Counted from the first letter of the stretch, positions 15,622 to 50,766 are shown. The stretch: 64,000 nucleotides of DNA from an uncultured Synergistales bacterium (GCA_905233565.1 CAJOCL010000010.1:18832-82831); one strand, 5' to 3'. Numbers and translations are program-made. The notes: a model not told the origin generated them from the letters alone.

Positions 15622-15699
15622 GATTAAACATCTCCTTTAATTTGCGGTTACTTTTAACTTAACGGAATTTTGTATATTTTATCATTAAAAAGCAGCTGC

Positions 15700-15736
15700 A
15701 AAATAAAAACGGCGTCCCTTAAAACTTCAGGACACC
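15700..15736 (-). terminator. Rho-independent terminator candidate after pckA
   Basis: Minus strand reads GGTGTCC-tgaagttttaag-GGACGCC followed by GTTTTTATTTT. Confidence 0.55.
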
Positions 15737-15771
15737 GTAAATTTTTTCTTAAATCTCTTTACTGAAAACTG

Positions 15772-17430
15772 TTAGCCTATTTCGGCGATGAGTTTTTCTA
15801 CAGCCTCGTGAGCATCGGCAGGCAGTTTATCAATTCCGCCTCTTTCAGTATCACGCGACTTTATGAAGTTCAATCTGTCCTGGAAACGCTTCTTTAACTG
15901 CGTTCTGTATTCCTCGTTCTTGAGGTCTGCGTCAAAGCCCGGTATTTCCATCGTCTTAATGCCGCTCAAATTCCCGAACGGTACCCATTTGGCTTTGTTC
16001 TCGACAATGCGTTCAATAATCATGAGCGTATTTTCTTTGCCTACGGGCTTGCCCATGAAGTTGCCTGTGTTGAGAATGTAGCAGTCAACGCCGTCAGAAA
16101 TAAGCTGCTTGAATCTCTCGTAGTCCATTCCGAGCGGGTAAGTCCTGAACGGGTTTGCGTAAGGTTCGCAGACAAGAGCATCAGGATCAACGCCGGGAGC
16201 TAAGTTTTCGGCACTCGTTCTCTTTGTTGCCAGAGTTGCGCCGAGTACGGAAGCAAGTGAAGGCCCTTCAAGTTTCAAAACAGGCGGCAACGTAGGATCC
16301 CTCATGAGCCAGAATATTGCGTTCAAAGGCTCGTCGATTCTGTCAACCCTGTTCGGCGACCATAAACGCGATTTGATTGCGCGTCCGTTTCCGTTTCTTA
16401 CGTCTTCGGTTACGGCGATTAATTTTCCGTCAGCGTCTTTAACACAGCCGCAGTTCTGAAGTGTAAGCAGGAATTTGTTATCAGGGCAGCCTATCGGGTA
16501 ATCCGCAACTTTATCGAAATATGTCGGTTCAAGTGCAATTGCGTATTTGTCTTTTACGTTTACGACAAATGCGTCATCATGAAGTACCATGACATCATAT
16601 TTTCCGTCATGCTTTGCGTGTGTAATCGTTGATTTTCCTGAACCTGAAAGACCGAATGCTGCCATGACGTATTTTTTGTTGCTGCCGTCTTTCAGCGTGT
16701 AACGCTTTAATCCGCCGTGACATGACGCGTAACCGTTTCTTGCGGCGATACCCCATGCGAGTGTCAGGGTGCCTTTTTTCAATTCTCCGAAATATCTAAG
16801 GCCGAGAACGATTGCGCAGTTCTCTTCGGGTGAGAAGAATGCCAATCCTAACGGGAAATCAGGGTGTGACCAGTCAGGATCTGCAACAAAGAATATATCT
16901 CCATCATGGTCTGAAATTCTGCGCGATTTTTCATAGCGCGGCTTATATGCCTCGTTTGCATACTGGAAATTAATCATCCAGTTGTAAAGGTTATTTTCAT
17001 AGCCTTCAGGGAGAATTATGTGTGCTGCGGTCATGAAATCTTCGTCAAGTCCGACGTAAGCATCTGCCTGATAAAGTTTCTTGTAACGCATATTGTAGAC
17101 TGCTTCGCGTATTATTTTGCAGTATTTATTAACATCTACATCGGGATATCCTACTATGCGTCTTGCTGCGGCTGTTCTGCCGAAGATTGCGCCGTCATTG
17201 AAAAGAAGTACATTTGCATTCTGCGGTAATTCCTGCTCTGTCGGCTTGTAAACCGGCATTCCAGTAAGTTCGATTGTTCCGGGCGAATTCTTTGCGAGCG
17301 TGTAGGCTTCTTTCAGGTCAAGAACATGATGAACGTTATTACCGTAAAACAGCGTTTCAATCGTTGTTCTGGGCTGTGCGTGATAAATTTTTTTGAAATT
17401 TTCAGGATCATAATATCCGATTGTTGACAT
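15772..17430 (-). CDS. pckA: Phosphoenolpyruvate carboxykinase (ATP)
   Basis: ORF track 15772..17451. ATG 17430 is preferred because AAAGGGG lies upstream. Kinase-1a P-loop FGLSGSGKSTITH; NTGNFMGK is also typical of ATP-PEPCK. Confidence 0.85.
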   Translation of the reverse strand: MSTIGYYDPENFKKIYHAQPRTTIETLFYGNNVHHVLDLKEAYTLAKNSPGTIELTGMPVYKPTEQELPQNANVLLFNDGAIFGRTAAARRIVGYPDVDVNKYCKIIREAVYNMRYKKLYQADAYVGLDEDFMTAAHIILPEGYENNLYNWMINFQYANEAYKPRYEKSRRISDHDGDIFFVADPDWSHPDFPLGLAFFSPEENCAIVLGLRYFGELKKGTLTLAWGIAARNGYASCHGGLKRYTLKDGSNKKYVMAAFGLSGSGKSTITHAKHDGKYDVMVLHDDAFVVNVKDKYAIALEPTYFDKVADYPIGCPDNKFLLTLQNCGCVKDADGKLIAVTEDVRNGNGRAIKSRLWSPNRVDRIDEPLNAIFWLMRDPTLPPVLKLEGPSLASVLGATLATKRTSAENLAPGVDPDALVCEPYANPFRTYPLGMDYERFKQLISDGVDCYILNTGNFMGKPVGKENTLMIIERIVENKAKWVPFGNLSGIKTMEIPGFDADLKNEEYRTQLKKRFQDRLNFIKSRDTERGGIDKLPADAHEAVEKLIAEIG

Positions 17431-17504
17431 AAAAATATTTGCCCCTTTCATTAATTTTCAGGCTAGTTTACTGAATTATACAGAACTCAAAGCAAAAATC
17501 AAGG

Positions 17505-17542
17505 ATAAAAAAACGGGACACCTTTATCAAAAAAGCGTCCCG
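17505..17542 (-). terminator. Rho-independent terminator candidate after the surface-protein gene
   Basis: Minus strand reads GGGAC-gcttttttgataaaggt-GTCCC followed by GTTTTTTTAT. Confidence 0.5.
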
Positions 17543-17550
17543 AAAAACTA

Positions 17551-20500
17551 TCAGCGTTTTTTCCTCAAAATTAACAGCCCTGTGAGCATTAACCCAAGTG
17601 TCAGGCCGCTGTCACAACCGCCGCTTGAACTTGAAACTCCCTGCGCTGCTTCCGAACTTTCCATAGTTACGACAGGTGAGTAAATTTTCCCCGCTTCAAG
17701 ATAAGCAGCTACATTAACATGCTTGTTTGCAGGTACGGTTGAAACTTCATCGCCGTCATCATTCAGGAACGTGTAATCCCCAGTGTACTCTTCTGAAGAG
17801 TAAACAGAGCCTGTTACTTCCCTTGTCGTCATGTCAAGGAAAATTTTTGTCCCTTCAGCAAGATTATCAAGGCTCACTCCGAACACGTAAACAGCTGCAA
17901 CATCTACACTGATTTCAGGCAAAACAACTGCCGGTTCCCGTCCCTGTGCCATGATTGAGTTTAACTGTCCCGTTGAAAGGTTGCTTATCCCCCTGCTGTG
18001 TCCCGATGCCCTTTCAGGCAAAATATCAACGCTGATATTCGGACGGCTCAGCAAACGTCTCAGATTATCGGCAACAGTATCAACATTTACTGACGGAGCG
18101 TGAGGCATTGAAGACTCAGGAGTTATTGTCTTGTCAGGGCTTGTTGTCGCCGGAATATCGGGGCTTGACGGTGCAGGAATATCAGGACTCGTTGGATCCG
18201 GTTCAGGTTTAGGCTCAGGAATAACTGAATTTTCAAGTATCAGCTCAACATCACGAGATGTTGCTGACGCTAAGAGAAGAGGCCTGTATGTGCCTGCCAT
18301 GAAATAAGCAGCTACGTTGATGAATTTTTCCCCTGAAACTGCACCGGTTATGTTGCCCTCATCATCAACAAACATTACCCGGCTGACTTCCTGCCACTGC
18401 TCCTCGCTGTAAGTCCTAAAGAATATTTCAGTGTCTTCAAGCGTTATATTCTCTGTCGGCAGCCTGAACATGTATAAACCGTCAGTAAATATACGAATTT
18501 CAGGAAGTACAACGGCTATAAGTTTCGGATTTTCACCGCTCACTAAATCCGCGCTCAGTTCGTTAAACACCGCAACGGCATCACGGGACGCAATTATCAG
18601 GGAATTTTCAGCCGTCAGCATATTGACACCGTACTGAAGATTCATAGTGTCCACGAAACTCCAGACTTCATTATAAGCATCTTCTGAAGGATCCTGCGGA
18701 ACTGCGTATCTCGGATAAACTGAGAGGCCGTCAATTCCCATTTTATGCGGTGCTTCAGGCTCAGGGATTACGGGCGGCTCAACCGGCGTAACGCTCTCTT
18801 CTGAGTACTGAACCCAGCCGTAAACGTTAGCGTCCATTGAAGCAAGAGATTTCATGAACGCCTCAGCATCATCAGTCAGTCCGGGTATGACGTACTTTCC
18901 TGTCGAAACATCAAGCGATGCTACCCATATTTCAATAGGTCTGCCGAGATATATTTCTGAATGGCCGTAGTTATACCTAGCCGTAAATGTTGTTCCAAGC
19001 GTTGTTATTCCCGCTGATTTCCCGGTTAATCTGATTTTTACCGTCCTGTCATCGCTGGAAATTATATCGAACGAAAGTATATCCGAATTTCCGACATATG
19101 CGAGGAGATTGTCAAAATTTTCGTCCTCTAAGCTCAGAGTAATGTCACAGCTTTCGCCTGCTTTCAGGAAGCCCGGGAACGCCGAAAAGTCCGCAGAAAC
19201 TACTAAATTGCTATGATAATCATCAGGAACATCTACAGGCTGGAAATTCCACGTACGCACAATATTACCGTCATCATGCGTGAAAACTATGCTGTTTATG
19301 GAGATTTCAGGGATATTCAGCACTATAGAACCATTGAGGCCGTTTGCATGGAATGAAGACGAATAACTACTGTTTACGTCAACGCTAAGAACTCCTGAAC
19401 CGTTAAGCGTCCATTCAAGGGATTTTGCGTTCAGGCCGTCAGCAACAATCTTGAATTTCGGCCTCAAATTTTCCGAAATTTCCGGGATTGCAGGCATTGT
19501 ATAATCTCCTGAATTGAAAAAGCCTGAAGGAAATTCACATCTGAATTTTTGACCTCCCCTTAAGAGCGGCAGGTTATATTTCAACCTGTAAAACAATCCG
19601 TCCATTCCCCCCTCCAAAGTGTAATCAGGGTAAATGGTGTAAACGTCTTCGGGGTCTTCGCCCTCTTCGTAGTAATCGCGTGAGACGTAGACATTGCATC
19701 TAAAGGAGTATATTCCATTGTCCCAGAATACTGATCCCGATATTCTTCCATTGCACACAAGATATACGGAAGGACCGCCTCTAACATTGTTATAATCAGG
19801 AACGCCGCCGATTACTGGCCCGTTGAAATTCATGTCTATTTCAACACTAAAATCATCGCTTGTAACGTCCTTTGTTGTGCTTGAGCCGCTGTAAGAGAAC
19901 ATCCAATAATAGCGTATGCCGTCATAAACGTATTCAAAGTCTATGCCGCCACTGTTACTGTAAGGCTGTCCACTCGGGAAATTAAGAGTTCCTGAGGTTC
20001 CGTTTAAGCTGATGCCGTTAATCGAGATGTCGGAAATTTCCGAAGGATTAACCTGCGACAAGTTCGACGATTTAACGAATGACCATTCTATTGCCGAAAT
20101 GTAATTTTTATCCTCAGAGAAAATCGGCCTTACAAACGGAACGAAATCTTCAAGCTGTTCTGATGTTGAGCGTATTTTATCGGCTGAAATCAGAGACGAC
20201 AGTTTTATCGGCGAGCTGTTAAGATCCGGGCTTTCAGGAAATTCATACCACAGCGTTATTTCTGAAAAGTCATCGGGAATATGGACAGGTGATAAAGAAT
20301 ATTCTCCGTTATCATTGCTGTCAAGAGTATTAAAACTTACGCCTTCGGTAGAAAAAGGGTAAACGTACGAGAAAAGGCCGTATCCTGTAATGCTATCGAT
20401 GCAGAACATATATTCATCATCGCTGACGTTATAGGCTTGAACGTTCATGATTTCATGCGTTGAGCCATTGACGATACCAAGATGACCGCTCAACGGAAGC

Positions 20501-21900
20501 ATTAATGAGATTGTTCTGGTACCGCCGATTGAATCATAAAAGGTACGTTCTGAAACCGTGAAGACATCTGAGCTTTTAGCTTTTAAGCCGCTGAGAGAGT
20601 GAAGTATTAATCCCCTATCAGAAGCTGAATTGTATTTCGGTATATCACCGCTGAATACAACACTTGTTGCGTGTTCGAGCAGAGGTTTAAGAACAGAATT
20701 TTTTTCCTCGAAATTCATATCTCCGCTCTCATCCGTAACTATTATTTCACGGTAAAAAGCCTCTTTGTCATAATGCTCTCCCGTTATATTCGGAATGTAA
20801 ACTTTCAGGGCCGTAACTCCCGGTTCTCCGGCAATCAGCGTAAACGATAATTCTGACTTGTTCTCGCGCCAGTTCATGCCATTCCATGTTCCCGAACCCT
20901 GTTTGAAATTCAGATCATCAACTTCAAGAACTGAGGAGTTTCCGACTTCAACGGCATCACTGCTGAGGCTGAACTTGTACCATGACGGTATCTTTATCAC
21001 TATGTCCCTGCTCTCGCCCGTCCTGAGGGTTAAGGGCTGTTTTGAAAGCGCAAGATCTCCCCAGTTTATGCTTGAGAAGTGTCCGCCGACAGGTTCAAAG
21101 TTCCACGTGAAATTTTTCCCGTCCTTCATATAGCTGACTGTTACTCCTTGCAATAAGTCTTCAGTCATTTCAAAGTAATGGCTCTGGCGTACAGGATAGG
21201 GCTTTGAAAACTCCGTAAACGTATGAGACGGTGAGTCCCAATTCATAACAACTCCTAATGTTACAGAAGGCAGATTTACTGCTACGGGGACGCTCCAATC
21301 GCCTGACTTCACGAACCATAAGTCAATACGCCCGATTTCGTCAGGCTTGTCATCCCTGTGATTGACCCTGACAAACGGCACAATATCATTAACATCTATG
21401 CTTATCGGCTCAAGTTCTGAAATTTTTTTGATAACTGCACTCCCGACCGTAACATCAGGCGAGGTGTACAAGTTCCAGAGAACTTTACTCCCTGCAAGGT
21501 ATTGAATACCATAATAAAAAGAGCCAACATTATAACCCTGAAATGTCCCTGCATAACTGCCATAATTATAACTGTATAACCCTATCGGACTTATGTAATA
21601 ATTCTGTCCGTCCGGAAACCGATCACTGCTCACAACGGTTAATGTACCTAGCGGCAATACGTTGCTCTCATAATCCTTCCTGACTGTTCCGCCCAAACTC
21701 ACGCCGTTTGGTTTGAATTGCTGAACACCCGAATAGTCAGGTTCTCCGTCAATCCTTAATCTCACGCTTCCGCTCGTTACGTATTCATAACAAAGTCCGA
21801 AACCCGAAAAAGGATTTGAAGGAACTTCCGCGCCGCTTGAGACAGTGCAGGTTACGCATAAAATCATAACAAGTACTGTCAGCAAAAAGAACTTACGCAT
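17551..21900 (-). CDS. Giant secreted/cell-surface protein with a Synergistetes-type C-terminal sorting signal
   Basis: ORF track 17551..21939. ATG 21900 gives MRKFFLLTVLVMILCVTCTVSSGAEV, a signal peptide. The protein is 1449 aa with several reiterated modules and a Pro-rich linker. The extreme C-terminus is SSSGGCDSGLTLGLMLTGLLILRKKR (GC motif, TM helix, basic tail). Confidence 0.75.
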   Translation of the reverse strand: MRKFFLLTVLVMILCVTCTVSSGAEVPSNPFSGFGLCYEYVTSGSVRLRIDGEPDYSGVQQFKPNGVSLGGTVRKDYESNVLPLGTLTVVSSDRFPDGQNYYISPIGLYSYNYGSYAGTFQGYNVGSFYYGIQYLAGSKVLWNLYTSPDVTVGSAVIKKISELEPISIDVNDIVPFVRVNHRDDKPDEIGRIDLWFVKSGDWSVPVAVNLPSVTLGVVMNWDSPSHTFTEFSKPYPVRQSHYFEMTEDLLQGVTVSYMKDGKNFTWNFEPVGGHFSSINWGDLALSKQPLTLRTGESRDIVIKIPSWYKFSLSSDAVEVGNSSVLEVDDLNFKQGSGTWNGMNWRENKSELSFTLIAGEPGVTALKVYIPNITGEHYDKEAFYREIIVTDESGDMNFEEKNSVLKPLLEHATSVVFSGDIPKYNSASDRGLILHSLSGLKAKSSDVFTVSERTFYDSIGGTRTISLMLPLSGHLGIVNGSTHEIMNVQAYNVSDDEYMFCIDSITGYGLFSYVYPFSTEGVSFNTLDSNDNGEYSLSPVHIPDDFSEITLWYEFPESPDLNSSPIKLSSLISADKIRSTSEQLEDFVPFVRPIFSEDKNYISAIEWSFVKSSNLSQVNPSEISDISINGISLNGTSGTLNFPSGQPYSNSGGIDFEYVYDGIRYYWMFSYSGSSTTKDVTSDDFSVEIDMNFNGPVIGGVPDYNNVRGGPSVYLVCNGRISGSVFWDNGIYSFRCNVYVSRDYYEEGEDPEDVYTIYPDYTLEGGMDGLFYRLKYNLPLLRGGQKFRCEFPSGFFNSGDYTMPAIPEISENLRPKFKIVADGLNAKSLEWTLNGSGVLSVDVNSSYSSSFHANGLNGSIVLNIPEISINSIVFTHDDGNIVRTWNFQPVDVPDDYHSNLVVSADFSAFPGFLKAGESCDITLSLEDENFDNLLAYVGNSDILSFDIISSDDRTVKIRLTGKSAGITTLGTTFTARYNYGHSEIYLGRPIEIWVASLDVSTGKYVIPGLTDDAEAFMKSLASMDANVYGWVQYSEESVTPVEPPVIPEPEAPHKMGIDGLSVYPRYAVPQDPSEDAYNEVWSFVDTMNLQYGVNMLTAENSLIIASRDAVAVFNELSADLVSGENPKLIAVVLPEIRIFTDGLYMFRLPTENITLEDTEIFFRTYSEEQWQEVSRVMFVDDEGNITGAVSGEKFINVAAYFMAGTYRPLLLASATSRDVELILENSVIPEPKPEPDPTSPDIPAPSSPDIPATTSPDKTITPESSMPHAPSVNVDTVADNLRRLLSRPNISVDILPERASGHSRGISNLSTGQLNSIMAQGREPAVVLPEISVDVAAVYVFGVSLDNLAEGTKIFLDMTTREVTGSVYSSEEYTGDYTFLNDDGDEVSTVPANKHVNVAAYLEAGKIYSPVVTMESSEAAQGVSSSSGGCDSGLTLGLMLTGLLILRKKR
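18142..18189 (-). repeat. 2 x 24-nt imperfect tandem repeat inside the surface-protein gene
   Basis: Minus strand reads agtcctgatattcctgcaccgtca / agccccgatattccggcgacaaca, encoding SPDIPAPS / SPDIPATT within the linker PEPKPEPDPTSPDIPAPSSPDIPATTSPD. Confidence 0.85.
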
Positions 21901-21985
21901 TAAAAATAGCCTTCTTTCTTTGATTTTTTTTGGAAACAATTTAGTAAATTTTAATTCCCCTCCCCCAATACGTCAACCTACTAAT

Positions 21986-29044: not shown

Positions 29045-29062
29045 CCCCCTTTTTATAGGGGG
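29045..29062. terminator. Short hairpin between convergent maf and lpxK-fusion genes
   Basis: CCCCCT-ttttat-AGGGGG followed by CATTTCAATTTTTT. It overlaps the last codons of the minus-strand gene. Confidence 0.5.
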
Positions 29063-31275
29063 CATTTCAATTTTTTGTATACATTCTCCCTGATTTCCCA
29101 GCCTAAATTTTTGCCTGTAAAATTAACAACGTCATCACAGGCTCCGCAGGTTCCCATTCTTTTCTGTCCCGTAACACTCATGTATTCATAAAGATTTTTA
29201 TCTTCAAGGACTTTCAGGGCACATTCGGATATTGCCTCAGCACTGAAAGACGTTAAAATCTCAGCATCGCCGAGCAGTTTTTTCTGAACGCGTTTTCCCT
29301 TGTTATCGGGGGCGATTACGGGAACTCCCAGCCCTGCACATAACTGGTTTGCAGTTCCTCCCATTCCAAGCAGTATACAGACATCGTTAATTGCTTCCGT
29401 AACATCTTTATCAGTAATTTCTATAATAATGCCTGATTTTATTAAATTATTATTGACATGTTCCCAGCCTTCATTTTTGCAGGACGAATAGAACGGCATT
29501 TCATCGAGCGTCGGGGCAAGTACCATTCTGAATTTGAATTTTCCGCTGCTTCTTGAGTTCAATATTTCTACAGCTGAAAGCAATGTTTTAACGTCATTTG
29601 CCGCACTCTTACGGCTTCCCGGCAGCAATAAAATTACATTGCCCTTTGAATTTTCAGGTTTACTGTTACCGGCCAGATCCATTATCGGACTTCCCGAATA
29701 AACTGCATTTTTACCGATCTGAGAGGCTGTCGGGGCATCCCTTGTCCAAGTTCTGAGGGTGAAATTTCTGATTATCATTCTTTCCGTCTGCCAATGCCCT
29801 GAAATATAAACAGTCTTAGCTGTAGCCATAAATAACGGCCGTTTGCCTGAACCGTAAAGAGCGTGTAAAAGCAGATAAACATCACCGACACAGATCGGAG
29901 TCAATATATTTTTTGAAATTTTCCTCCAGTCTTTTAACTGTTCGCGGACCTGACGTATTAACCCCGCTCTCATGTCGCCCCATAAATCTTTAAGCGAATA
30001 TTTAAGGACACCGCCCGAAGGAGTTACGGATCTTGCCGACAGTACGTTTATTCCCTCCCGTAAATAAGCCTCTCCCCTGCCGACTAAAGGGAACGCGTTA
30101 ATCTCAGCATATTTGTATTTATCCCTTAATTTTTTTGCTAACACGCTTCCGATTGCGTCCTCTCCGTAACCGTTTGAAGATACTATAATTCTCGGCTTTA
30201 ATTTATCAGTTACGGCATTATAGAATTTTTCAGGCTCATTGACTGCGGCTTCAATTTCAGGGACGATTAAAGGGACATCATGAGGCCATGAATGAATCTC
30301 AGGAAGGTTATACAGGTCTTTTTCAGTGCATATTAAAGCGTCTGAATTTGTATCTTTTGCTGCTTTACACAACATCTCAGTATCTTTGAGGGTATATCTG
30401 TGATGATCAGTAAAATTCTTATAGCCTTTTATGTTCAGTCCTAAATCTTTTACTGTATGCTGAAAACTTTCTGGGCTTCCGATTGCCGAAAAAGCAAAAA
30501 CGTTCATTCCTTCATGAGGCTCTATATTTCTGCCGTATTTCAGCCAGCCCGTAAATTTTAGGCATGACGTAAAAATCAGATTTTCAGGGACATATTTCAT
30601 AATTTTTTGTTTCAGGTCATCAAGTTCATGACTGCTTACCATGTCAGATTTTGAAATTATTACAATATCCGAACGCTTCAAGGCTTTTATATTTTCGCGC
30701 AGTATCCCGGCCGGAATTAATTTCCCGTTTCCGAAAGGGCATAAAGCATCAATTAAAACAATGTCGCAGTCCCTTGACATGCCCCTGTGCTGGAAAGCGT
30801 CATCAGCAATTACAAGCTCAATGCCGATTTTCCGAAGTTCATTAACTCCGTCAATCCTTCTTTTAGCTATTGCAACGGGGACATCAGGAAGCTCACGGGA
30901 AAGCATTAAAGGTTCGTCGCCCGTAATATTCCTGTCTCCCTCGCCGCCGTAAAGTATTATTACGCTGTTGTTTTTTCCCGTATAGCCGCGTGTAACTATG
31001 CCGGTTTTAACGCCTTTTGATAACGCCCATTGAGCGAGCATTTTAACGGAAGGGGTTTTATTCGTTCCGCCGTAAGAAAGATTGCCGGCACTTATAACGG
31101 GCAGTGAAGGCTCATCAGTTTTCAATATTCCCCGAAGCCTCAAAAAGTCAGCAAGTTTCACGTAAAGCCCCGTAATCCATGAGGCAGGCGAAAATATAAT
31201 GTTGAAAAGCGTGTTAATCTCTATGCCCCTGACATGACGCATATATAAATCACTGCATTCTGCACAGTTCAGCAT
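29053..31275 (-). CDS. lpxK: Fusion protein: tetraacyldisaccharide 4'-kinase (LpxK)-like N-terminal half + LpxB-related GT-B glycosyltransferase-like C-terminal half
   Basis: 740 aa. The N-terminal half (PVISAGNLSYGGTNKTPSV, GIVTRGYTG, IADDAFQH) is LpxK-like. The C-terminal half begins RIIVSSNGYGEDAIGSVLAKKL, like the lipid-A-disaccharide-synthase-related family. The alternative start ATG 31242 avoids overlap with msbA. Confidence 0.7.
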   Translation of the reverse strand: MLNCAECSDLYMRHVRGIEINTLFNIIFSPASWITGLYVKLADFLRLRGILKTDEPSLPVISAGNLSYGGTNKTPSVKMLAQWALSKGVKTGIVTRGYTGKNNSVIILYGGEGDRNITGDEPLMLSRELPDVPVAIAKRRIDGVNELRKIGIELVIADDAFQHRGMSRDCDIVLIDALCPFGNGKLIPAGILRENIKALKRSDIVIISKSDMVSSHELDDLKQKIMKYVPENLIFTSCLKFTGWLKYGRNIEPHEGMNVFAFSAIGSPESFQHTVKDLGLNIKGYKNFTDHHRYTLKDTEMLCKAAKDTNSDALICTEKDLYNLPEIHSWPHDVPLIVPEIEAAVNEPEKFYNAVTDKLKPRIIVSSNGYGEDAIGSVLAKKLRDKYKYAEINAFPLVGRGEAYLREGINVLSARSVTPSGGVLKYSLKDLWGDMRAGLIRQVREQLKDWRKISKNILTPICVGDVYLLLHALYGSGKRPLFMATAKTVYISGHWQTERMIIRNFTLRTWTRDAPTASQIGKNAVYSGSPIMDLAGNSKPENSKGNVILLLPGSRKSAANDVKTLLSAVEILNSRSSGKFKFRMVLAPTLDEMPFYSSCKNEGWEHVNNNLIKSGIIIEITDKDVTEAINDVCILLGMGGTANQLCAGLGVPVIAPDNKGKRVQKKLLGDAEILTSFSAEAISECALKVLEDKNLYEYMSVTGQKRMGTCGACDDVVNFTGKNLGWEIRENVYKKLKCPL

Positions 31276-32998
31276 AAAGACCCCCTAATTTCAATAATTC
31301 GTCGTGATTTCCGCATTCAGTGAAACGCCCGTCCTGTATCACATAAATTCTGTCGGCATTCCTTATCGTGCTTAACCTGTGAGCTATTATTATTGACGTT
31401 CTGCCCTTCATGGCCTGATTTAACGCTTTTTGAACTGCATGTTCTGACGCAGTATCAAGTGAACTTGTAGCCTCATCGAGTATCAATATTTTAGGATCTC
31501 TTATAACTGCCCTTGCAATAGCTATTCTCTGACGCTGTCCGCCTGAAAGCGTAACGCCCCTTTCGCCGACAAGTGAGTTATAACCGTCCGGGAGGCTTTC
31601 TATAAATTCCCTTATATCCGCAATTTCAGCAGCATTTATTATTTTATTCATGTCATGTTCTCTTAATCCGTAAGCAATGTTAAAAGCTATAGTACCTCTC
31701 ATTAATATACATTCCTGAGGAACTATGCCTATCTGCTGCCGTAAATCTTTGAGGCTGAAATCCTGTATATTATGGCCGTCAATTAATATTTTTCCTGACG
31801 ACGGCTCATAAAATCTGGGTATGAGATCGGCAATCGTTGATTTCCCCGAACCTGTGGGGCCTGCAATCGCTATTTTTTCACCCGCTTCAATCTCAAAATT
31901 TATGTCGTGAAGTATTTCCTGTTTGTCATAACTGAAATTTACATGTTCAAATTTTATATTGCCTTTTACCGTTATATTTTCAGATTTTGAAGTGTTATCA
32001 TCTTCAGCAGGGATATTTAAGACTTCCGAAATCCTCTCCGCGCTCGCAAGTCCCGTCTGCAGATAGCCCATTTGATTCATGACGCTTCTTATAGGCTGTA
32101 CCATGAAAGCAATATAGCCGGTGAATGAAACTAATTCGCCCGGTGTCAAATCGCCGTTGATGACAAGCTGCCCCCCTGCCCTGAAAATTACGGCAAGTGC
32201 AGCTATAAGAAAAACTTCAATAACTCCCGCTAAAATTGACTGAACTGAAACGGCCTGCAAAAGTGCCGAGTAATTTCCCCTTCCTGCCTCTTTGAAGCGT
32301 TCAAGTTCCTCATCTTCATTTGCGAATGACCGCACTACCCTCACCGCGCTGAAAGCCTCCTGAGCCGTTGCGGTAATATCCGCTAAATGTTCCTGTACGC
32401 TGTGTCCGGCAATACGTAATTTTTTCCCTGCGAATGATAACAGCATTCCGACAAACGGAAGGACGATAATAATTAAACATGTTAATTTCCAGTTTATATA
32501 TATAATAAAAGCGAACATTCCAAGAAAAGTGATTAAATTGAACATAAGATCAATAAAAGTTGTCGTTACTATATTCTGAAGTGTCGCAGCGTCCCCAGTG
32601 ATTCTGCTCATAAGTTCGCCGGTTCTTGAAGCGTATATAGTGCCGAGTTTCATTCTCAGCATGTGATTATAAAGCGCGTTCCTTATGTCCATAACAACGC
32701 CCTGCCCGGCCTCGTTCATGAAGTAACGCTGAAAATATGAAGTTATTGATTTAAGTGTGAATATTATGACCAGTGAAATGCAGATTATATTTAACATCAA
32801 AGTATTGCGCTGTATCAGAACATCATCGACAACTGACTTGAACATGTAAGGCGGAAGGACGTTAAGCCCTGAAGACAGCAGCATGAATAAAACAGCAAGA
32901 ATGATTTTCACTCTGTAAACTTTCGTGTAGCTGAACAGCATTTTAACAGGCTCAGAAACCGTCATTTTCAACATCTCCCGTTCCCGTCGCAATATCAC
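31250..32998 (-). CDS. msbA: ABC transporter permease/ATPase, lipid A exporter MsbA-like
   Basis: 582 aa. Six-TM exporter domain plus NBD (GPTGSGKST, LSGGQRQRIAIARA, ILILDEATS). It is embedded between lpxB-like and lpxK-like genes. Confidence 0.75.
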   Translation of the reverse strand: MILRREREMLKMTVSEPVKMLFSYTKVYRVKIILAVLFMLLSSGLNVLPPYMFKSVVDDVLIQRNTLMLNIICISLVIIFTLKSITSYFQRYFMNEAGQGVVMDIRNALYNHMLRMKLGTIYASRTGELMSRITGDAATLQNIVTTTFIDLMFNLITFLGMFAFIIYINWKLTCLIIIVLPFVGMLLSFAGKKLRIAGHSVQEHLADITATAQEAFSAVRVVRSFANEDEELERFKEAGRGNYSALLQAVSVQSILAGVIEVFLIAALAVIFRAGGQLVINGDLTPGELVSFTGYIAFMVQPIRSVMNQMGYLQTGLASAERISEVLNIPAEDDNTSKSENITVKGNIKFEHVNFSYDKQEILHDINFEIEAGEKIAIAGPTGSGKSTIADLIPRFYEPSSGKILIDGHNIQDFSLKDLRQQIGIVPQECILMRGTIAFNIAYGLREHDMNKIINAAEIADIREFIESLPDGYNSLVGERGVTLSGGQRQRIAIARAVIRDPKILILDEATSSLDTASEHAVQKALNQAMKGRTSIIIAHRLSTIRNADRIYVIQDGRFTECGNHDELLKLGGLYAELCRMQ

Positions 32999-44575: not shown

Positions 44576-45070
44576 TCATCTGGATCTCTGTCTAGTCTCT
44601 GAAATTCTAATCCTCCCTTCAGTCGTAGCAATAATAACATCGCATTCACCATCAGCCCCTATTACAGTTATTGTGCCTCCGGCATTAAAACGCTTATTAC
44701 GAGCATTATATGTACCTTTTTTATTTGCAAGTTTATTTTCATATGAACACCCTACTGTGGGTTCTAATTTCGATTTCGGGTATTTATCTCCCCAGCTTAT
44801 AGTTACAACAACTTGACCTGTTTCAACAATGGGACCTACTTCAATATCAAAATTCATATGTCTGCGGTCTGCAGCATCCTTCATACTACTAAGGAACATT
44901 TGGAGACGCTCAGCCTCACGCTTAGCGGTCTGCTTTGCTATTTCAGGGCTGAAAGTCATAACTGAGGCCATAATTCCAAGAATGAGAATTACTACAGCCA
45001 TTTCAACAATTGTAAAACCTTTGCGCTTTTCCACTGAAAAAAGATTATTATTTTCCATGTCCCACGACAC
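44576..45070 (-). CDS. Type IV pilin / pseudopilin with prepilin cleavage-methylation motif (GspH/FimT-like)
   Basis: KRKG|FTIVEMAVVILILGIMASV is the class III signal (G-F-T-x-x-E, Glu at +5) followed by the hydrophobic helix. The protein is at most 164 aa; the internal ATG 45058 is also possible. Confidence 0.8.
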   Translation of the reverse strand: MSWDMENNNLFSVEKRKGFTIVEMAVVILILGIMASVMTFSPEIAKQTAKREAERLQMFLSSMKDAADRRHMNFDIEVGPIVETGQVVVTISWGDKYPKSKLEPTVGCSYENKLANKKGTYNARNKRFNAGGTITVIGADGECDVIIATTEGRIRISETRQRSR

Positions 45071-46460
45071 CTCCCTTCATGAGCAGAATATCTTTAACCC
45101 TCAAAACAAGTTTGAATACCGTTCTTTGTAACTGATCCTTCTGGGATACAGGCAACATAACGCTGTCAAAAAGTCCGCTTTCTTTCAGGCCTTCCGTCAT
45201 TTTTATGATTGCCCCGTCGTCCAGTGATTTCCCGTCAACAACTACATTAACACCGCCTAAAGGACCGATGACAAAATCAGCGTTGTCGAATTTTACTCCT
45301 TCCGGCTGATTTACTTCAAGAGCGTTCATTATTTCAAGGACGGGTATATCACCCTTCAGAAAGTCTATAATCTTTTCTGTATGCTGTCTCTTCTGTTCAA
45401 GTTCCGCATTTTCGCGCTCAAGAGCCTGCCTGCGTATTGTCAAAGCACTTACATTCTCGCGCATATCCTCAATACTTGCGTTGAGATTCCGCATCGTCAT
45501 GAAGGCATATGATATTGTGCCTAATGATGTCATCATAAAACCGGCCAGAAGTCCCCACAAAATCAGCCTGTTAGGATTAAATGAATATCTCCGCCGTTCA
45601 AGCTCTATATACTCGGGCGGTCTTAAATCGAGTCCGTTTTCGGGAGATTCCCTCATTGCCAGGCCAAGCGATGAATAATACGGGTCTGTTATGTTTACTA
45701 TTCCCATCCCTGAGTCCGTGCTTATCTGGAAATCAAGGCCGGCGAGTACTATTTTGTTGATTTCCACGCCCCTGTACTGAGTGCTTATGAACTGTATTGT
45801 ATTCAGTATGTCCTGAAAGTTGCTGAGATTGTTTACAGTCCTGTAGAAAATTCCCCAGCCTTCCCAAGTTGCAATAATATTGTGTTTGTCGGCGAATACG
45901 CAAAGCCCGCTTTGAGCTTCCGGGATTGCCCTTATTGCAGCGAAGTTTGAAGGTTCGATTGATCCGGCAGGGATACCGGTTCTTTTCGATATGTCAAGAA
46001 TTTTATCAACGAGTGATTTTCTTGCCGTTGCAGCGAGTACTGAGACTTTATCTTTGTCGTTTGCGTCGGCAGGTGTCTTTATCACTACGGCATCAAAGAC
46101 AGTATCATTTCTTGAGGTGAAATATTCCTCAAAATTAAGATCAATGGTGCTGCGAATATCTTCAATGCTCATTCTCGGAAAACTGATCGGCCTTCTCAGC
46201 ATTGCATCGCCCGGAGGCAGGCCGATAGTTACAGGCTGCCTTATTCTGCCTGTTTTTTTAACAAGGGCTGAAAAGCCGTTTTCAAGTGCGCTGAAATCCT
46301 TAATACTTCCGTTTACTACACAGCCCTCAGGGAGTGCTGACGCTTCCTGACGCGTTACGGTTCCGTTTTCGTCAATCTCAGTGAAATATAAAAATTCATC
46401 GGTTATTGCAAGTCCTGAATAATTTTTCTGTAATATTTTTTTTCCTGCACCGAACGGCAT
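45048..46460 (-). CDS. Type IV pilus assembly protein, PilM-PilN-PilO-like fusion
   Basis: 470 aa. The N-terminal ~290 aa is PilM-like (actin-like ATPase fold: ITDEFLYFTEID, GLPPGDAMLRRPISFPRMSIEDIRSTIDLNFEEYF). Then come LDLRPPEY, a TM helix (LILWGLLAGFMMTSLGTISYAF) and a coiled coil as in PilN, followed by a ~100-aa C-terminal domain. Confidence 0.7.
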   Translation of the reverse strand: MPFGAGKKILQKNYSGLAITDEFLYFTEIDENGTVTRQEASALPEGCVVNGSIKDFSALENGFSALVKKTGRIRQPVTIGLPPGDAMLRRPISFPRMSIEDIRSTIDLNFEEYFTSRNDTVFDAVVIKTPADANDKDKVSVLAATARKSLVDKILDISKRTGIPAGSIEPSNFAAIRAIPEAQSGLCVFADKHNIIATWEGWGIFYRTVNNLSNFQDILNTIQFISTQYRGVEINKIVLAGLDFQISTDSGMGIVNITDPYYSSLGLAMRESPENGLDLRPPEYIELERRRYSFNPNRLILWGLLAGFMMTSLGTISYAFMTMRNLNASIEDMRENVSALTIRRQALERENAELEQKRQHTEKIIDFLKGDIPVLEIMNALEVNQPEGVKFDNADFVIGPLGGVNVVVDGKSLDDGAIIKMTEGLKESGLFDSVMLPVSQKDQLQRTVFKLVLRVKDILLMKGGVVGHGK

Positions 46461-47128
46461 TATTTATTATCACTCCCGTACCAGATTTCTTGAAATGAGA
46501 GAGTTTCGACTTTATGCGGTGAATCTTCCTGCCTTTTTACGAGTACTTGATACATTATATTTTGACCGTTGAATTTTTCTGGGAGTTTAGCACGTGCCCT
46601 GATGAGATAATATCTACCCGTTATGGGTCTATTGTTTGGATCTTCTCCTTCATTTGCCGATTCTCTTTCAGGGGGCATGGCCGCAAAAACTTTTTGATAT
46701 ATATTCTTGCCACTGTATTGGCCGTCTATCCATTTTTTCCTATCGAATGCTGTGTTAAATGCGTACCATAAGTTATGAACTCTAACATGATATGTTTCAC
46801 CGTATTTGTCTCTCCATTTGTCAGGTATATCATCATCGCCCCATAAATTTGTAGCCTTTGTATTCTCGTAAAAACTTCTTACTCCCGGAACAACGTCATC
46901 GGCGAATGCAGCTTCAGGGATTGTGTCACCAACTCTTATATCGCGCACTGCATCTTTGGCAATTTCGACAAGCTCATCAAGCCTCATTCTGTACTGCATA
47001 ATTTCGCGCTCTTCAGAAACGGACTCAATAGACGTAGCAGTGAAAAAAAACACCTGAGCAGTTACCATACCAGAAAAAAGCAGAAAAATCATAACATTAA
47101 GCAGTGAAACGCCTTTCTTTCGCTTCAT
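46460..47128 (-). CDS. PilX/minor-pseudopilin-like protein (N-terminal hydrophobic helix without Glu+5)
   Basis: 222 aa. MKRKKGVSLLNVMIFLLFSGMVTAQVFFF resembles the PilX/GspK-type N-terminus. ATGA overlap with the upstream nuclease gene and TAATG overlap with the downstream pilMNO-like gene. Confidence 0.5.
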   Translation of the reverse strand: MKRKKGVSLLNVMIFLLFSGMVTAQVFFFTATSIESVSEEREIMQYRMRLDELVEIAKDAVRDIRVGDTIPEAAFADDVVPGVRSFYENTKATNLWGDDDIPDKWRDKYGETYHVRVHNLWYAFNTAFDRKKWIDGQYSGKNIYQKVFAAMPPERESANEGEDPNNRPITGRYYLIRARAKLPEKFNGQNIMYQVLVKRQEDSPHKVETLSFQEIWYGSDNK

Positions 47129-47991
47129 TGTTTACCTCCCCAGTCTTTTATGCAGCTGTTCTTAAACGGACAGACCGAACATAATTTTTTGTCACGCAAA
47201 ATTTCAGGCACCCTCTTTGATAATAACACGCTGAAAGCAGAATGAAATAATTCTGGCAGTTGTGTTTTAATCATTTTTTCAACAAATGACGGCTCAAAAA
47301 TATCAGGCTTTTTTTCAATTTCATCAAGATATATTATCTCAACTGAAGGAAATATCCCTGATTTTTTCCAGATCAGCCACGAATAAATCAAACTCTGCGA
47401 CAGCGGAACAGTAATATCAGATTTCATATGTCCCTTGAACTCAAACAATCTTGCTTCGGCCTTATCAGGATTAAACATCAGTGCATCATAACAGCCTTTA
47501 ACAACAAGAGTGTTTCCGTTGCTGAAATTATAATACGCCTTTAACATTTGTTCAGGCTGAATGAAAATTTTCTGCATGTTTTTTTCAGGATTTTTCAGGA
47601 GAGACGGAATACCCATGAAAAATTCATACATTGCCCGAATCCATACAGTTATGGCTCTGTTCATCGCATCAACCTGTTCTGTCATTAATTGCTCAGAATT
47701 TGAATCCAATAACGGAATTAATATATACTTGCTTATCATAGATTCAAGTGATGACGGATAACGTAAGGAGGCCGCTATTTTTTCGTAAAGAATGCTTTCA
47801 GGGTTTGAGGCACCTTGAAAGAATACTTTAGCTATGTTCTTGTGAAATAATGAACCGTAAGCGTAACCGCTGCCCTTGATTCCGACATGCCATGCAGTTT
47901 TTGCGCCCTTGAAAATCTTATAGGCAAGAAGAGCCGGGCATTTTTGACACAAGGCAAGATCGCTCACCGAGATAGAACGAGATACGCCCAT
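47125..47991 (-). CDS. Stand-alone Cas4-like PD-(D/E)xK nuclease with 4-Cys (Fe-S) signature
   Basis: 288 aa. Motifs in order: N-terminal SVSDLALCQKCP, GSLFH, CYDALMFNPDKAEARLFEFKG (D...ExK), SQSLIYSWL (QxxxY) and C-terminal CSVCPFKNSC (CxxCx5C). Confidence 0.7.
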   Translation of the reverse strand: MGVSRSISVSDLALCQKCPALLAYKIFKGAKTAWHVGIKGSGYAYGSLFHKNIAKVFFQGASNPESILYEKIAASLRYPSSLESMISKYILIPLLDSNSEQLMTEQVDAMNRAITVWIRAMYEFFMGIPSLLKNPEKNMQKIFIQPEQMLKAYYNFSNGNTLVVKGCYDALMFNPDKAEARLFEFKGHMKSDITVPLSQSLIYSWLIWKKSGIFPSVEIIYLDEIEKKPDIFEPSFVEKMIKTQLPELFHSAFSVLLSKRVPEILRDKKLCSVCPFKNSCIKDWGGKQ

Positions 47992-47996
47992 GAATA

Positions 47997-49949
47997 TTAA
48001 TCTGCCGCCTCACTTGATAATGTTACGAGAGTATCTTTATTTTTTGAAGTAAACGTCTTGAACAGATGCGAATTATTATTGATTATTGATATTACGTCAT
48101 TCCGTACTAATTTTATCCCGCGCTGTGATAAGATGTCAGCAGCTTTATCAACCGTAACAATTTTCATCGGAGATGCCGTTATTATATTTTTCAATGTATC
48201 TTTGACTAAAGCATCATCGATAGTTTCTATTTTGCCTGTTTCTTTTTCCTCTGAATACGTTATTGATGGCGGTGAAGGCTCTATATTCTTTATTGTCTTT
48301 GTGTCTATGAGCTTGAGGGTTCGCACAAAGTCTTTTATGTCATTGCGTGTTGCCGTTCTGGGAGTTGAGGAAGTATAGAGATTTACATCTCCGTTGTCTA
48401 TACGGTTTATCAGGGCTGCAAGGGCGTACCAGCTTATGCGCGATTCTTTATCGAGCATTACTGTATGACCTCCCTGAGCCTCAAACTCGTGAAGATTCTC
48501 ATTAGCCTGCTTCCATGTCTTTTTGTGTGTTTGGTCTTCAGTAATGTAAAAACACTCACTGCCGGGATATTTTTTCATGAAAGATATTCCGCTTTTCAGG
48601 GCAGCACTCACTGTTGTATGTCCTTTAGCAGTAATTACCATAAACGCAAGTTTTTTATTGCCGTAAGCTCCTACAAGTTTTATGTACTTATAAGTTCTTT
48701 TCGAGACGCTGAAATTTTCAAATGAGCTTAGAAATACTTCCAGAGCGAGCAAGAGATAATCAGCGTTAGGAGGCCATGCAGAAGGAGCAGACTGAATCTT
48801 TATATAATCCTCGTCGTATATTTCTTGTATGCAATCTTCAGGTTTAATATCTGTCCTTACCGTTCTGTTGGCAAGTTCAATTACTATTCTTGGGGAAAGT
48901 CCGGGAACAAGAAAATCATTCATTCTTGATATAAGCCATTGATATTTTTCTTCCACACCGTCAGTAAAGGCTGCAGCGATTCTGTCATGTATAATACGGC
49001 GTGCCTGAGAGATTGAACAATTGCTGTCAAGCTTTATTGTATTATTTTGCAGACGCTGAGTTATTGAAGGATTCAGAATGTGCCGGAATATATCCCACGT
49101 TTCCCACTTTATGAAACATAATGGAAGTATACCCTCAATGTGATTCATGATAAATCCCACAGCATCCCCCCATGCTGTTATGAGTGTATTATCCCTGATT
49201 GAGTCAATCTCATCAAAACATATAATCATTGGAACGTGTGAATAAGACAAAACAATTCCAAGTGATGTAATGAAATTTTTTGCCGTGCTTTCACATTCTG
49301 CCTCTTCCATCGAATATATATCTCTCAGGGGTAAACCTAATCTTTCAGAATCTTCATCATCAAGACCCTCGCGGAGCCATTCAGTTATTTCATACTTAGT
49401 ACCCTCGTCATCAGCTTCCGAGTAAAGTATGAGACATTTTAGGAAAGTTCTGTTTATGTCAGGCATATCACGCTTTAAGTAAATTTTACGGTCTATTGAT
49501 TCGATATTGCTGAAACCGTCATTCTCTCTTTTTTCGTAATAAGAATCTATCATTCCTTGTATCACGACATCGAATTGTGAACGCCCATCACTGTGAACTT
49601 TATTCATAGACACAATAATTTCAGACCAAAGTTCCTGCATAACCTTTTTAGGATTAGTGAAGGCTCTTACCGTAACGAAAATTACTGACCACGAATTTTT
49701 TCTTATCTTCCGAAGTATTCGTGTGAGCATGTGCGTTTTTCCGGTTCCTGCTCCGCCGATCACAAGTCCTGAAATAGGCAGTGAAGGGTTACGCCTCTTT
49801 TGTCTTATGAGATGTTCAATTTCTTCTGATGCACTTCTGGCAATCTGCTCAATATCAGGAGTTGTATTCCCGAAAGGCATGGGAGAGGATGCAGAAGTAA
49901 AAGGATTATTTTCACGTAACTGATCTTGTATTAATTCACTATTTGACAT
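47997..49949 (-). CDS. AAA+ P-loop ATPase (ORC/Cdc6- or ExeA/MshM-like core) with a large uncharacterised C-terminal region
   Basis: 650 aa. An NPF...PFG N-terminal element is followed by Walker A GLVIGGAGTGKTHML and Walker B MIICFDEIDSI. A lid-like SISQARRIIHDRI follows. The last ~300 aa have no recognisable motifs apart from a possible winged-helix end. Confidence 0.65.
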   Translation of the reverse strand: MSNSELIQDQLRENNPFTSASSPMPFGNTTPDIEQIARSASEEIEHLIRQKRRNPSLPISGLVIGGAGTGKTHMLTRILRKIRKNSWSVIFVTVRAFTNPKKVMQELWSEIIVSMNKVHSDGRSQFDVVIQGMIDSYYEKRENDGFSNIESIDRKIYLKRDMPDINRTFLKCLILYSEADDEGTKYEITEWLREGLDDEDSERLGLPLRDIYSMEEAECESTAKNFITSLGIVLSYSHVPMIICFDEIDSIRDNTLITAWGDAVGFIMNHIEGILPLCFIKWETWDIFRHILNPSITQRLQNNTIKLDSNCSISQARRIIHDRIAAAFTDGVEEKYQWLISRMNDFLVPGLSPRIVIELANRTVRTDIKPEDCIQEIYDEDYIKIQSAPSAWPPNADYLLLALEVFLSSFENFSVSKRTYKYIKLVGAYGNKKLAFMVITAKGHTTVSAALKSGISFMKKYPGSECFYITEDQTHKKTWKQANENLHEFEAQGGHTVMLDKESRISWYALAALINRIDNGDVNLYTSSTPRTATRNDIKDFVRTLKLIDTKTIKNIEPSPPSITYSEEKETGKIETIDDALVKDTLKNIITASPMKIVTVDKAADILSQRGIKLVRNDVISIINNNSHLFKTFTSKNKDTLVTLSSEAAD

Positions 49950-50667
49950 TCCAGGCTACCGTTCCCATTCTGTAATTATTTTCATCAACGAAGCAGTCAT
50001 TAAGTTCATCCTGCGTCATCACAGATTCATCAGCAATATATATCCCTATAATCACTTCGTTGCGTAATTTCCTGATCATTTCGTCAAAAACTTCACGGGG
50101 CCAGCCCAGTTTTCTTCTCAGGTCGCAGATTCGGACGAAAATTCGCCCTTTGTCGAGAGAGTCAAAGGCTTCACGGAATTTTTCCCGCGTGTAATCTCCA
50201 GTATCATCTGATTTATTTTTACTGCTTTCAATCTTTACGGCCTGAATTTTATTTGCTTCAACGCTGAAAAATTTCGGCCTGATGAACTTGTCATCAACTT
50301 TAATTTTTGCTTTCCCCTCATCAACAAGATCATTAATAATTGATATGAAAACTGCCTTAGTGAATGGAAGACTGCTTATCGTTCTTGTATCGAGTGCTTT
50401 TTTCGGCGACAGCAAATTCAGGACAAGTTCCGAAGGTTCACAGGGCGTTAATATGTAAACTATTCTGCCCTTAGCACTGAACATGAAACAATCGCTCAAT
50501 GACTGTTCGAGTTTATGCCTTATGATTTTTCCCGTATCACCGCTTTTTATTCCAAGCTGTGATTTTGCGTCTTTACTCAGAGATGCCATGAGCTTTGAAA
50601 TTGTCATAAAGCCTTTATTTTTGTCGAGAATGCTTTGTATTAAGTCAGATATGCTTTTATCGGACAT
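49939..50667 (-). CDS. Hypothetical protein (possibly winged-helix repeats), first gene of the operon
   Basis: 242 aa. AAAGGAGTGA lies upstream of ATG 50667 and there is an 11-nt overlap with the ATPase gene. I recognise no motif. Segments such as GFMTISKLMASL and GRIFVRICDLRRKLGWPREVFDEMIRKL look wHTH-like (weak inference). Confidence 0.45.
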   Translation of the reverse strand: MSDKSISDLIQSILDKNKGFMTISKLMASLSKDAKSQLGIKSGDTGKIIRHKLEQSLSDCFMFSAKGRIVYILTPCEPSELVLNLLSPKKALDTRTISSLPFTKAVFISIINDLVDEGKAKIKVDDKFIRPKFFSVEANKIQAVKIESSKNKSDDTGDYTREKFREAFDSLDKGRIFVRICDLRRKLGWPREVFDEMIRKLRNEVIIGIYIADESVMTQDELNDCFVDENNYRMGTVAWNVK

Positions 50668-50766
50668 AATAAAAATTTCACTCCTTTAATTTCTTTTTAT
50701 TCAGTTGTGCTATTAGGTATAATTTTAACATTGATATTGACGCAAATTTGAGGTGATTATTAAATT

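Follow-up and report, generated by a model that had tools for sequence, protein, structure and literature searches.

A six-gene Synergistaceae operon joins an Orc/Cdc6-type ATPase and a Cas4-type nuclease to type IV pilus-like components and may be a membrane-tethered relative of predicted DNA-capture systems

A 64,000-nucleotide stretch of DNA from an uncultured Synergistales bacterium (GCA_905233565.1, CAJOCL010000010.1:18832-82831; "the window" always means this whole stretch) carries on its minus strand a six-gene operon, here g1 to g6 in order of transcription, in which a tandem winged-helix protein, a AAA+ ATPase of the Orc/Cdc6 clade and a Cas4-type iron-sulfur (Fe-S) nuclease are followed by three type IV pilus-like proteins. 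The trio g1-g2-g3 fits the description of the Orc/CDC6-restriction endonuclease (REase) capture systems, except that the REase fold of an insert in g2 is unconfirmed and that the DNA pump is absent. In most Synergistaceae loci the nuclease and the first pilus-like protein are a single open reading frame (ORF). From architecture alone we infer that the operon is a membrane-tethered derivative of these counter-invader systems that intercepts DNA at the membrane, a reading to which we assign a probability of about 0.45. The pilus-linked, pump-less and chromosomally fixed form found in Synergistaceae appears to be undescribed.

Results

The nuclease and the pilus-like proteins form one block

An ORF check of the window placed the six minus-strand genes between 50667 and 44576, and the same six genes appear in an independent gene call on the source contig. 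g1 (49939-50667, 242 amino acids) overlaps g2 (47997-49949, 650 amino acids) by 11 nucleotides, and a gap of 5 nucleotides separates g2 from g3 (47125-47991, 288 amino acids). The g3/g4 junction (47125-47145) carries a GGGGAGG Shine-Dalgarno sequence followed by an ATGA stop/start overlap, g4 (46460-47128, 222 amino acids) overlaps g5 (45048-46460, 470 amino acids) at TAATG, and g5 overlaps g6 (44576-45070) by 23 nucleotides. No terminator-like site was found on the minus strand between 50667 and 44576, the sole minus-strand match lying outside the operon at 50889-50877. The coordinates, the tight junctions and the lack of an internal terminator given in a preliminary description of this DNA are thereby borne out.

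Scanning species-representative genomes with a profile of the ATPase returned 36 Synergistaceae-type loci. The six genes are present in the same order in every Synergistaceae locus whose contig is long enough (25 of 25), and genes of the g4 or g5 type were never found apart from the trio in any fetched locus. Named homologues of g1, g2 and g3 all come from Synergistaceae, Synergistales or Fretibacterium metagenome-assembled genomes (MAGs), which places the source of the window in the Synergistaceae.

A single ORF spans g3 and g4 in 24 of 35 loci. Judged by length, some 95 of the nuclease's 120 best database homologues (~79%) have the fused form, of 440-518 amino acids. The junction of this form reads CxxCx5C, then 10-25 amino acids, then [KR][KR]RG(A/V)S(L/M), and in the split forms, including that of the window, g4 starts 5-8 residues before the conserved glycine. 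The split forms cluster among the nearer relatives of the window. A sequencing error or assembly artefact was rejected as the source of the split in the window, which has its own Shine-Dalgarno sequence and ATGA junction and is seen in 14 independent assemblies; the 288-residue split g3 is identical in all 14.

Because g3 and g4 are a single ORF in most loci, the coupling of the nuclease to pilus-like parts is physical and goes beyond a shared transcript, and the fusion is the strongest genomic evidence of a functional and physical interaction. The coupling to pilus-like genes is thus stronger than first claimed, both in the fusion and in the way the six genes travel together. The reverse idea, that a defence cassette came to lie upstream of a pilus operon and shares nothing with it but a transcript, could appeal to the occurrence of the trio without pilus genes in other phyla. 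However, it is largely refuted by the finding that nuclease and pilin-like protein are one polypeptide in those 24 loci, and the six genes are retained together in every long-enough Synergistaceae locus, also through relocations; we consider it very improbable.

The nuclease, the ATPase and the winged-helix protein

The g3 protein is a Cas4/AddB-type Fe-S PD-(D/E)xK nuclease. It matches PDDEXK_1 over its full length with 27 bits, and Cas4 models score weakly and below threshold (TIGR00372, 15 bits with a cut-off of 65). Of 42 homologues, 39-42 keep each of C18, H50, D169, E184, K186, Q199, Y203, C271, C274 and C280, and all 42 keep D169, E184, K186, Q199 and Y203. The motifs are D...ExK...QxxxY, a single N-terminal cysteine and a C-terminal CxxCx5C, which we take to be the Fe-S pattern of Cas4 and AddB. 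Since its residues match that pattern, g3 is very probably active and cytoplasmic.

In g2 the Walker A (GGAGTGKT) and Walker B (CFDE) motifs are intact, and residues G65, G68, G70, K71 and D246 within them are invariant. The best Foldseek matches of its AlphaFold2 (AF2) model, which has a predicted local distance difference test (pLDDT) score of 89.5, are Cdc6, Orc1 and Orc4 (E 3e-5 to 1e-3), and the RADAR ATPase RdrA is also among the matches. Pfam gave only weak AAA_22 and KAP matches (AAA_22 P-loop, 27 bits), and PDB sequence searches with profiles of g1, g2, the g2 insert and g4 found nothing past the P-loop or a weak winged helix-turn-helix (wHTH).

The weak AAA_22 match, together with the adjoining genes that resemble those of type II secretion systems (T2SS) and type IV pili, might be taken to mean that g2 is a GspA/ExeA/MshM-type AAA_22 ATPase for pilus or secretion assembly and that the nuclease fold is non-catalytic. 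This can hardly be correct: no ExeA, GspA or MshM model in NCBIfam scored on g2, Foldseek groups it with Orc/Cdc6 and RdrA, the catalytic residues of the nuclease are invariant, and relatives of g2 are fused to DNA pumps. The preliminary description had allowed for g2 proving to be an orthologue of this type; none was found, and the fold is that of Orc/Cdc6.

Between the AAA+ core and the C-terminal wHTH, the g2 model contains an inserted alpha/beta domain (residues about 405-545; 48315-48737, minus strand) with the secondary-structure order alpha-beta-beta-beta-alpha-beta, and the whole g2 model shows weak Foldseek matches to small phage endonucleases. On the strength of the model, the insert is a candidate for the "inactive REase" of the capture systems, as yet unconfirmed. 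The C-terminal domain (residues about 578-650; 48000-48218, minus strand) is winged-helix-like, is modelled with pLDDT above 90 in the pattern helix-strand-helix-helix-strand-strand, and is replaced by FtsK-alpha and an FtsK motor in relatives of ~1000 amino acids.

A g2 homologue, WP_124887652.1 (674 amino acids, annotated "ATP-binding protein", in the P0393 cluster), is present in Fretibacterium sp. OH1220_COT-178. This is probably an isolate, since it has RefSeq/UniRef records and no MAG label, and may offer an experimental host.

Three tandem winged-helix domains make up g1, at about residues 1-75, 77-136 and 160-240 of the AF2 model (pLDDT 87). Foldseek matches the model to other tandem winged-helix proteins (ESCRT-II, the SelB C-terminus, ScpB and MecI/MarR), and profile searches gave weak matches to Z-alpha and MarR wHTH domains, with no match in Pfam, NCBIfam or PADLOC. 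Mean identity between species is ~44%, and g1 is kept beside g2 both in Synergistaceae and in other phyla. We predict that g1 is the DNA-recognition subunit.

Foldseek and residue conservation therefore agree with the original identification of the trio as a wHTH protein, an ORC-like AAA+ ATPase and a Cas4-like Fe-S nuclease. The accompanying statement that the trio matches no named system holds for the PADLOC 2023 and NCBIfam 2026 models, and has to be qualified in that the trio fits the predicted Orc/CDC6-REase capture systems (PMC10853773).

Relatives in other lineages carry a DNA pump

An exhaustive profile search showed the family to be small, with 159 representatives at E <= 1e-30 among 1.84 billion. 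In two Fretibacterium loci (L038 and L040), g1 and g2 are followed by the same nuclease fused to FtsK-alpha and an FtsK/SpoIIIE motor, and g4-g6 are missing. We rejected an origin of this fusion through a deletion that joined g3 to the cellular ftsK nearby, as the FtsK part is only 28-31% identical to the cellular type; cellular FtsK orthologues are 51-59% identical to each other. In Desulfobacterota-type MAGs, g1-like and g2-like genes precede a gene that joins the nuclease to a HerA/TrwB-like ATPase; in L044 an IS21/ParB insertion splits this gene. Nuclease-HerA fusions are carried by L044, L046 and L053.

A metagenome scan with distant ATPases, whose loci were mapped by local hidden Markov models, showed nuclease-HerA, nuclease-FtsK and solo nuclease to be recurrent partners of g1 and g2. 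Single chains that join g2 to HerA (~1100 amino acids) or to FtsK also recur, and g2-FtsK fusions of ~1000 amino acids occur in Planctomycetaceae and Limnocylindrales. The fused pump domains score as the C-terminal parts of DndH (126 bits) and SspH (194 bits) and as mad8 of MADS (66-94 bits). Pumps occur in L038 and L040, L044, L046, L053, L065, L068 and the g2-pump fusions; the window operon lacks one, as do 25 of the 27 informative Synergistaceae loci. No g4- or g5-like gene was present in any non-Synergistaceae locus mapped, and the contexts of these relatives are variable and associated with insertion sequences (IS) or with restriction-modification (RM) genes.

Some of these loci have features of their own. 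In L044 (Desulfomonilaceae, 12042-17885), a ~3.8 kb insertion with a ParB/KorB-like gene and IS21 istA/istB interrupts the nuclease-HerA gene after QxxxY; the CxxCx5C motif and HerA resume in an ORF at 16629-17885, and an IS630-like transposase lies upstream at 5160-6362. At L084 (metagenome, 9932-20743), a g2-HerA protein of 1113 amino acids is followed by an SNF2/ResIII helicase (1084 amino acids) and an Eco57I/MmeI-type methylase (1397 amino acids), and the locus has the look of a bigger, composite RM-like system with the Orc-HerA protein at its centre. A Planctomycetota MAG (L045, 9992-13813) encodes an Orc-like and HerA-like ATPase in a single chain of 1135 amino acids, directly followed by a 133-residue ORF that by eye looks like a PemK/MazF-type toxin, from GDIVLVEFPYSD...KKRPALVV.

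The type IV pilus-like proteins

The bitopic g4 protein combines an N-terminus that resembles a class III signal, MKRKKG|VSLLNVMIF..AQVFFF (residues 1-30; nucleotides 47128-47039), with an extracytoplasmic domain. Residues G6, S8 and L9 are invariant, and position +5 is Ser or Asn and never Glu; GspK/PilX-type minor pilins likewise lack Glu+5. The extracytoplasmic domain is fast-evolving, with a conserved C-terminal motif ...LSFQEIWY. The label "PilX-like" given to g4 describes a resemblance of the N-terminal segment only and is dropped here: when 13 orthologues were scanned with Pfam, no PilX, GspK or pilin domain came up, and the protein has no Pfam or PDB match.

The fused form of g3 and g4 suggests a further possibility, that the nuclease is a giant cytoplasmic "leader" of a prepilin-like protein, which would be released or gated by prepilin-peptidase cleavage or by docking to PilM-PilN. 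We find this doubtful, giving it perhaps one chance in a few. If it were true, this would be a restriction system connected with a type IV filament machine, a gatekeeper for incoming DNA, and the first capture system to have a pilus- or competence-like apparatus, not a HerA/FtsK pump, as its DNA-handling partner.

The g5 protein is a PilM-PilN fusion with a GspL-like architecture: a cytoplasmic actin-like PilM domain (about residues 1-290), a transmembrane segment near 296-318, a coiled coil and a periplasmic PilN-like domain (about 377-449). PilM_2 scores 34 bits in Pfam and PilN weakly, and a profile of g5 matches the Thermus competence protein PilM (2ych, E 4e-11) and Myxococcus PilM (E 3e-10) in the PDB. 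All 16 orthologues have PilM_2, 12 of them have PilN, and none has a match to PilO, so that the PilM and PilN parts of the proposed "PilM/N/O fusion" stand and the PilO part does not.

The g6 gene encodes a pseudopilin of 164 amino acids from a GTG start, or of 160 from ATG 45058, where the independent gene call begins, with the canonical class III signal ..KRKG|FTIVE... Pfam N_methyl matches with 26.9 bits, IV_pilin_GFxxxE (TIGR02532) is above cut-off, there are N-terminal matches to GspH and GspG, and the motif G|F[TS]x[IV]E is conserved in orthologues, in line with the prepilin motif noted in the preliminary description. In most relatives two consecutive N-methyl pseudopilin genes follow the PilM-PilN gene (for example L001:13008-13963, L007:14890-15851 and L016:14938-15842); the window and L018 have one.

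These proteins bear on two further explanations. One is that the module is a pro-transformation accessory of a competence-type pseudopilus which trims incoming DNA or hands it over for recombination, as had been proposed for this operon. The best solved match of g5 is the Thermus competence PilM, Cas4-type nucleases process DNA ends, and the cluster resembles a core locus, probably passed on vertically, which is often so for competence genes. Nevertheless, every relative outside the family belongs to an architecture that combines pump and nuclease, is related to restriction components of DndH, SspH and MADS, and is predicted to act against invaders, and no ComEC, DprA or ComF gene is present in the neighbourhood of the cluster. 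We therefore think a pro-transformation role unlikely. The broader form of the proposal, DNA processing coupled to a DNA-handling pilus-like machine, is viable.

The second explanation is envelope-sensing immunity, in which the subcomplex of pseudopilin and PilM-PilN would be no DNA gate but would sense phage attack on the envelope or on pili and activate a cytoplasmic g1-g2-nuclease effector. It draws on the same architecture as membrane tethering does, and also on the rapid change of the extracytoplasmic parts of g4 and g6, which at 24-47% identity are the fastest-evolving of the cluster, as would be expected of surfaces in an arms race. Zorya and Kiwa are membrane-anchored defences that provide analogues. 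On the other hand, PADLOC models revealed no homology to known sensors, core-like and syntenic inheritance is unusual for such systems, and sensing and tethering look the same in silico. We judge envelope sensing, too, to be an improbable account.

Chromosomal position and inheritance

About 22-23 loci have the cluster placed between the divergently oriented genes rsmH-ftsL-ftsI-murE-murF-mraY and a co-directional yceG (mltG)-ftsK pair, as in L001, where the flanks span 130-7222 and 14013-17467. The window, L008 and L018 have lost this dcw/yceG-ftsK neighbourhood and have unrelated flanks, with g1-g6 intact in three unrelated contexts. Pairwise g2 distances, computed from multiple alignments, correlate with those of FtsI, YceG and FtsK (Pearson 0.62-0.80; 0.84 for a housekeeping control pair), with weaker rank correlations. 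This is consistent with mostly vertical inheritance of the cluster, though not proof of it. The conserved position and the intact block speak against a cassette having recently inserted itself at the start of a pilus operon; that suggestion, the alternative raised in the preliminary description, is unsupported as a recent event for what is a family-wide block in a mostly fixed position.

The same location raises the possibility of chromosome surveillance linked to the divisome, in which the tethered nuclease would work in trans with the cellular FtsK, for example on septum-trapped DNA, or on foreign replicons during segregation. In keeping with this, the cluster lies between rsmH-ftsL-ftsI-murE and yceG-ftsK in about 22 loci, g2 and g3 are repeatedly fused to FtsK-alpha and an FtsK motor in relatives, and such FtsK domains are proposed to have been captured from the cellular segregation FtsK (PMC10853773). 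However, the window, L008 and L018 keep the six genes without that neighbourhood, the FtsK domain of L038 and L040 is far from the neighbouring cellular type, at 28-31% identity, and pseudopilins have no known role in division. A divisome link is in our view quite unlikely.

Promoter region and window context

A 99-bp divergent intergenic region 5' of g1 (50668-50766, minus strand), read from the sequence, contains the g1 ribosome-binding site AAAGGAG and is presumed to be the operon promoter. Promoter-like matches are frequent in this AT-rich DNA (29, with 17.8 +/- 4.7 expected) and uninformative; in the region upstream of g1, promoter-like hexamers lie on both strands and are not diagnostic. 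The neighbours of the operon in the window are housekeeping genes, encoding a DtxR/FeoA regulator, UvrB, LeuA, a glyoxalase, CysE/CysK and shikimate dehydrogenase, and no mobile element, cas gene or core pilus gene is annotated among them; nor do phosphorothioation or methylase genes accompany the Synergistaceae cluster among its annotated neighbours. In agreement with the earlier remarks that CRISPR, PilB and secretin genes are missing here, the window has no CRISPR-like or tandem repeats, and a motif search of its covered parts found no PilB/GspE-type Walker A assignable to a secretion ATPase, no prepilin peptidase and no secretin motif. The only match to a PilB/GspE Walker A pattern, at ~31861, was rejected as a secretion ATPase, as it lies in an ORF of ABC-transporter size.

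That match, an ABC-type Walker A GPTGSGKST, belongs to the second of two adjacent large minus-strand ORFs of 740 and 582 amino acids at 29053-32998. Elsewhere on the minus strand of the window, a 1462-residue ORF (17551-21939; ~1449 residues on the source contig) has no Pfam family on record and adjoins PEP carboxykinase, and a TerD-family gene (6101-6718) has PriA and CoaBC (flavoprotein/DFP) genes as its neighbours, the rest of its surroundings being housekeeping genes.

Discussion

We hypothesize that the operon encodes a membrane-tethered system that cuts incoming DNA. In this model, g4, g5 and g6 would form an inner-membrane subcomplex resembling part of a type IV filament machine, which might hold the nuclease at the cytoplasmic face of the membrane beside the PilM domain. 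The nuclease is predicted to lie on that face from the positive-inside segment before the g4 helix and from its Fe-S cluster. g1 and g2 could bind duplex DNA, with ATP used to license or position the nuclease, and the complex would then cut phage, transforming or conjugative DNA that enters through or beside the gate. The pilus-like machine may stand in for the HerA/FtsK pump as the DNA-handling partner, and the system might have been domesticated as a vertically inherited core locus in Synergistaceae.

Several observations weigh against this model. The g2 insert did not align with the nuclease family (hhalign probability 0.2) and had no PDB sequence match, and DndG models show no detectable similarity to g1. 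No homology to pilins could be detected for the globular part of g4, in Pfam or in the PDB. PilB/GspE, PilC/GspF, PilD and a secretin were missing from the covered parts of the window and within +/-10 kb of ~40 orthologous loci, and no ComEC or pump gene lies nearby. Finally the locus is core-gene-like, syntenic at dcw/yceG-ftsK and set among housekeeping neighbours, unlike a typical defence island.

If membrane tethering is correct, Orc/CDC6-nuclease anti-invader modules can exchange their DNA pump for a type IV filament-like membrane platform, and the idea of capture would reach beyond DNA segregation, packaging and conjugation to take in the entry of DNA at the envelope. Pilus biology would for its part gain an architecture without precedent, in which an Fe-S enzyme of 290 residues stands upstream of a class-III-like signal segment. 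Throughout a family of gut and rumen bacteria the cluster is conserved and present in a single copy, and the analysis offers annotations for genes labelled "hypothetical", "ATP-binding protein" and "PD-(D/E)XK nuclease family protein". Both the nuclease-pilin fusion and a replacement of the pump would surprise specialists in defence systems and in type IV filaments.

Comparison with known systems

None of the six proteins matched a named system in PADLOC-DB v2 (2023), NCBIfam 2026 or Pfam. For the trio, PADLOC gave no match to g1, P-loop-level matches only to g2 (E above 3e-5, over ~70 residues) and weak Cas4 matches to g3. Literature searches found nothing on Synergistetes pili, on Cas4-like nucleases together with FtsK and ORC, or on pilin-nuclease fusions.

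Like Cas4, g3 has the D...ExK...QxxxY motif, the Fe-S cysteines and weak matches to Cas4 models, but it is ~100 residues longer and has no CRISPR array or cas gene beside it. The pump domains joined to this nuclease family in other phyla resemble those of DndFGH/SspFGH and MADS (mad8), whereas none of g1, g2 and g3 has a match among the Dnd, Ssp and MADS models. Analogies can be drawn with HerA-NurA, in that the non-Synergistaceae relatives couple a nuclease to a HerA/FtsK ring, and with ring loading by ORC/Cdc6-Cdt1, in that an Orc-type ATPase is paired with a multi-winged-helix partner. In both cases, however, the sequence relationship is at superfamily level only, and the window operon lacks a ring translocase.

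The second half of the operon resembles the PilM-PilN(-PilO) subcomplex of type IV pili, or the GspL subcomplex of T2SS, with its minor pseudopilins. g5 has PilM, a transmembrane segment and a PilN-like domain, g6 has a class III signal, and g4 has a hydrophobic N-terminus of the form G|(A/V)S(L/M) without Glu+5. The locus differs from a type IV pilus or T2SS in that PilO, PilB/GspE, PilC/GspF, PilD and a secretin are absent from it and from +/-10 kb in ~40 relatives, and in that a cytoplasmic nuclease of ~290 residues lies upstream of the pilin-like signal segment. We know of no precedent for a nuclease in that position.

The closest likeness is to the "HerA/FtsK capture systems" predicted by comparative genomics (Rakesh, Aravind & Krishnan, Nucleic Acids Research 2024, PMC10853773, section 22). 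In one class of these, the pump is coupled to a specific Orc/CDC6 ATPase that has an inactive REase before its C-terminal wHTH (PMC10853773), and it was proposed that the Orc-type ATPase localises the apparatus on DNA and the pump intercepts invading DNA (PMC10853773; restated in PMC12839542). Neither the text and supplement of PMC10853773 nor PMC12839542 mentions pilins, PilM or Synergistaceae. The window operon shares with this class the Orc/CDC6-clade ATPase g2, the PD-(D/E)xK nuclease g3, predicted to be active, and the multi-wHTH protein g1, and the pump, HerA or FtsK(-alpha), is found in relatives of g2 and g3 just as in the published account. In contrast, the module of the window and of most Synergistaceae has no HerA or FtsK, and its nuclease is instead joined to a pilin-like anchor, PilM-PilN and pseudopilins. 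Whereas the capture systems have a mobile and variable gene neighbourhood, the Synergistaceae locus is syntenic and core-like.

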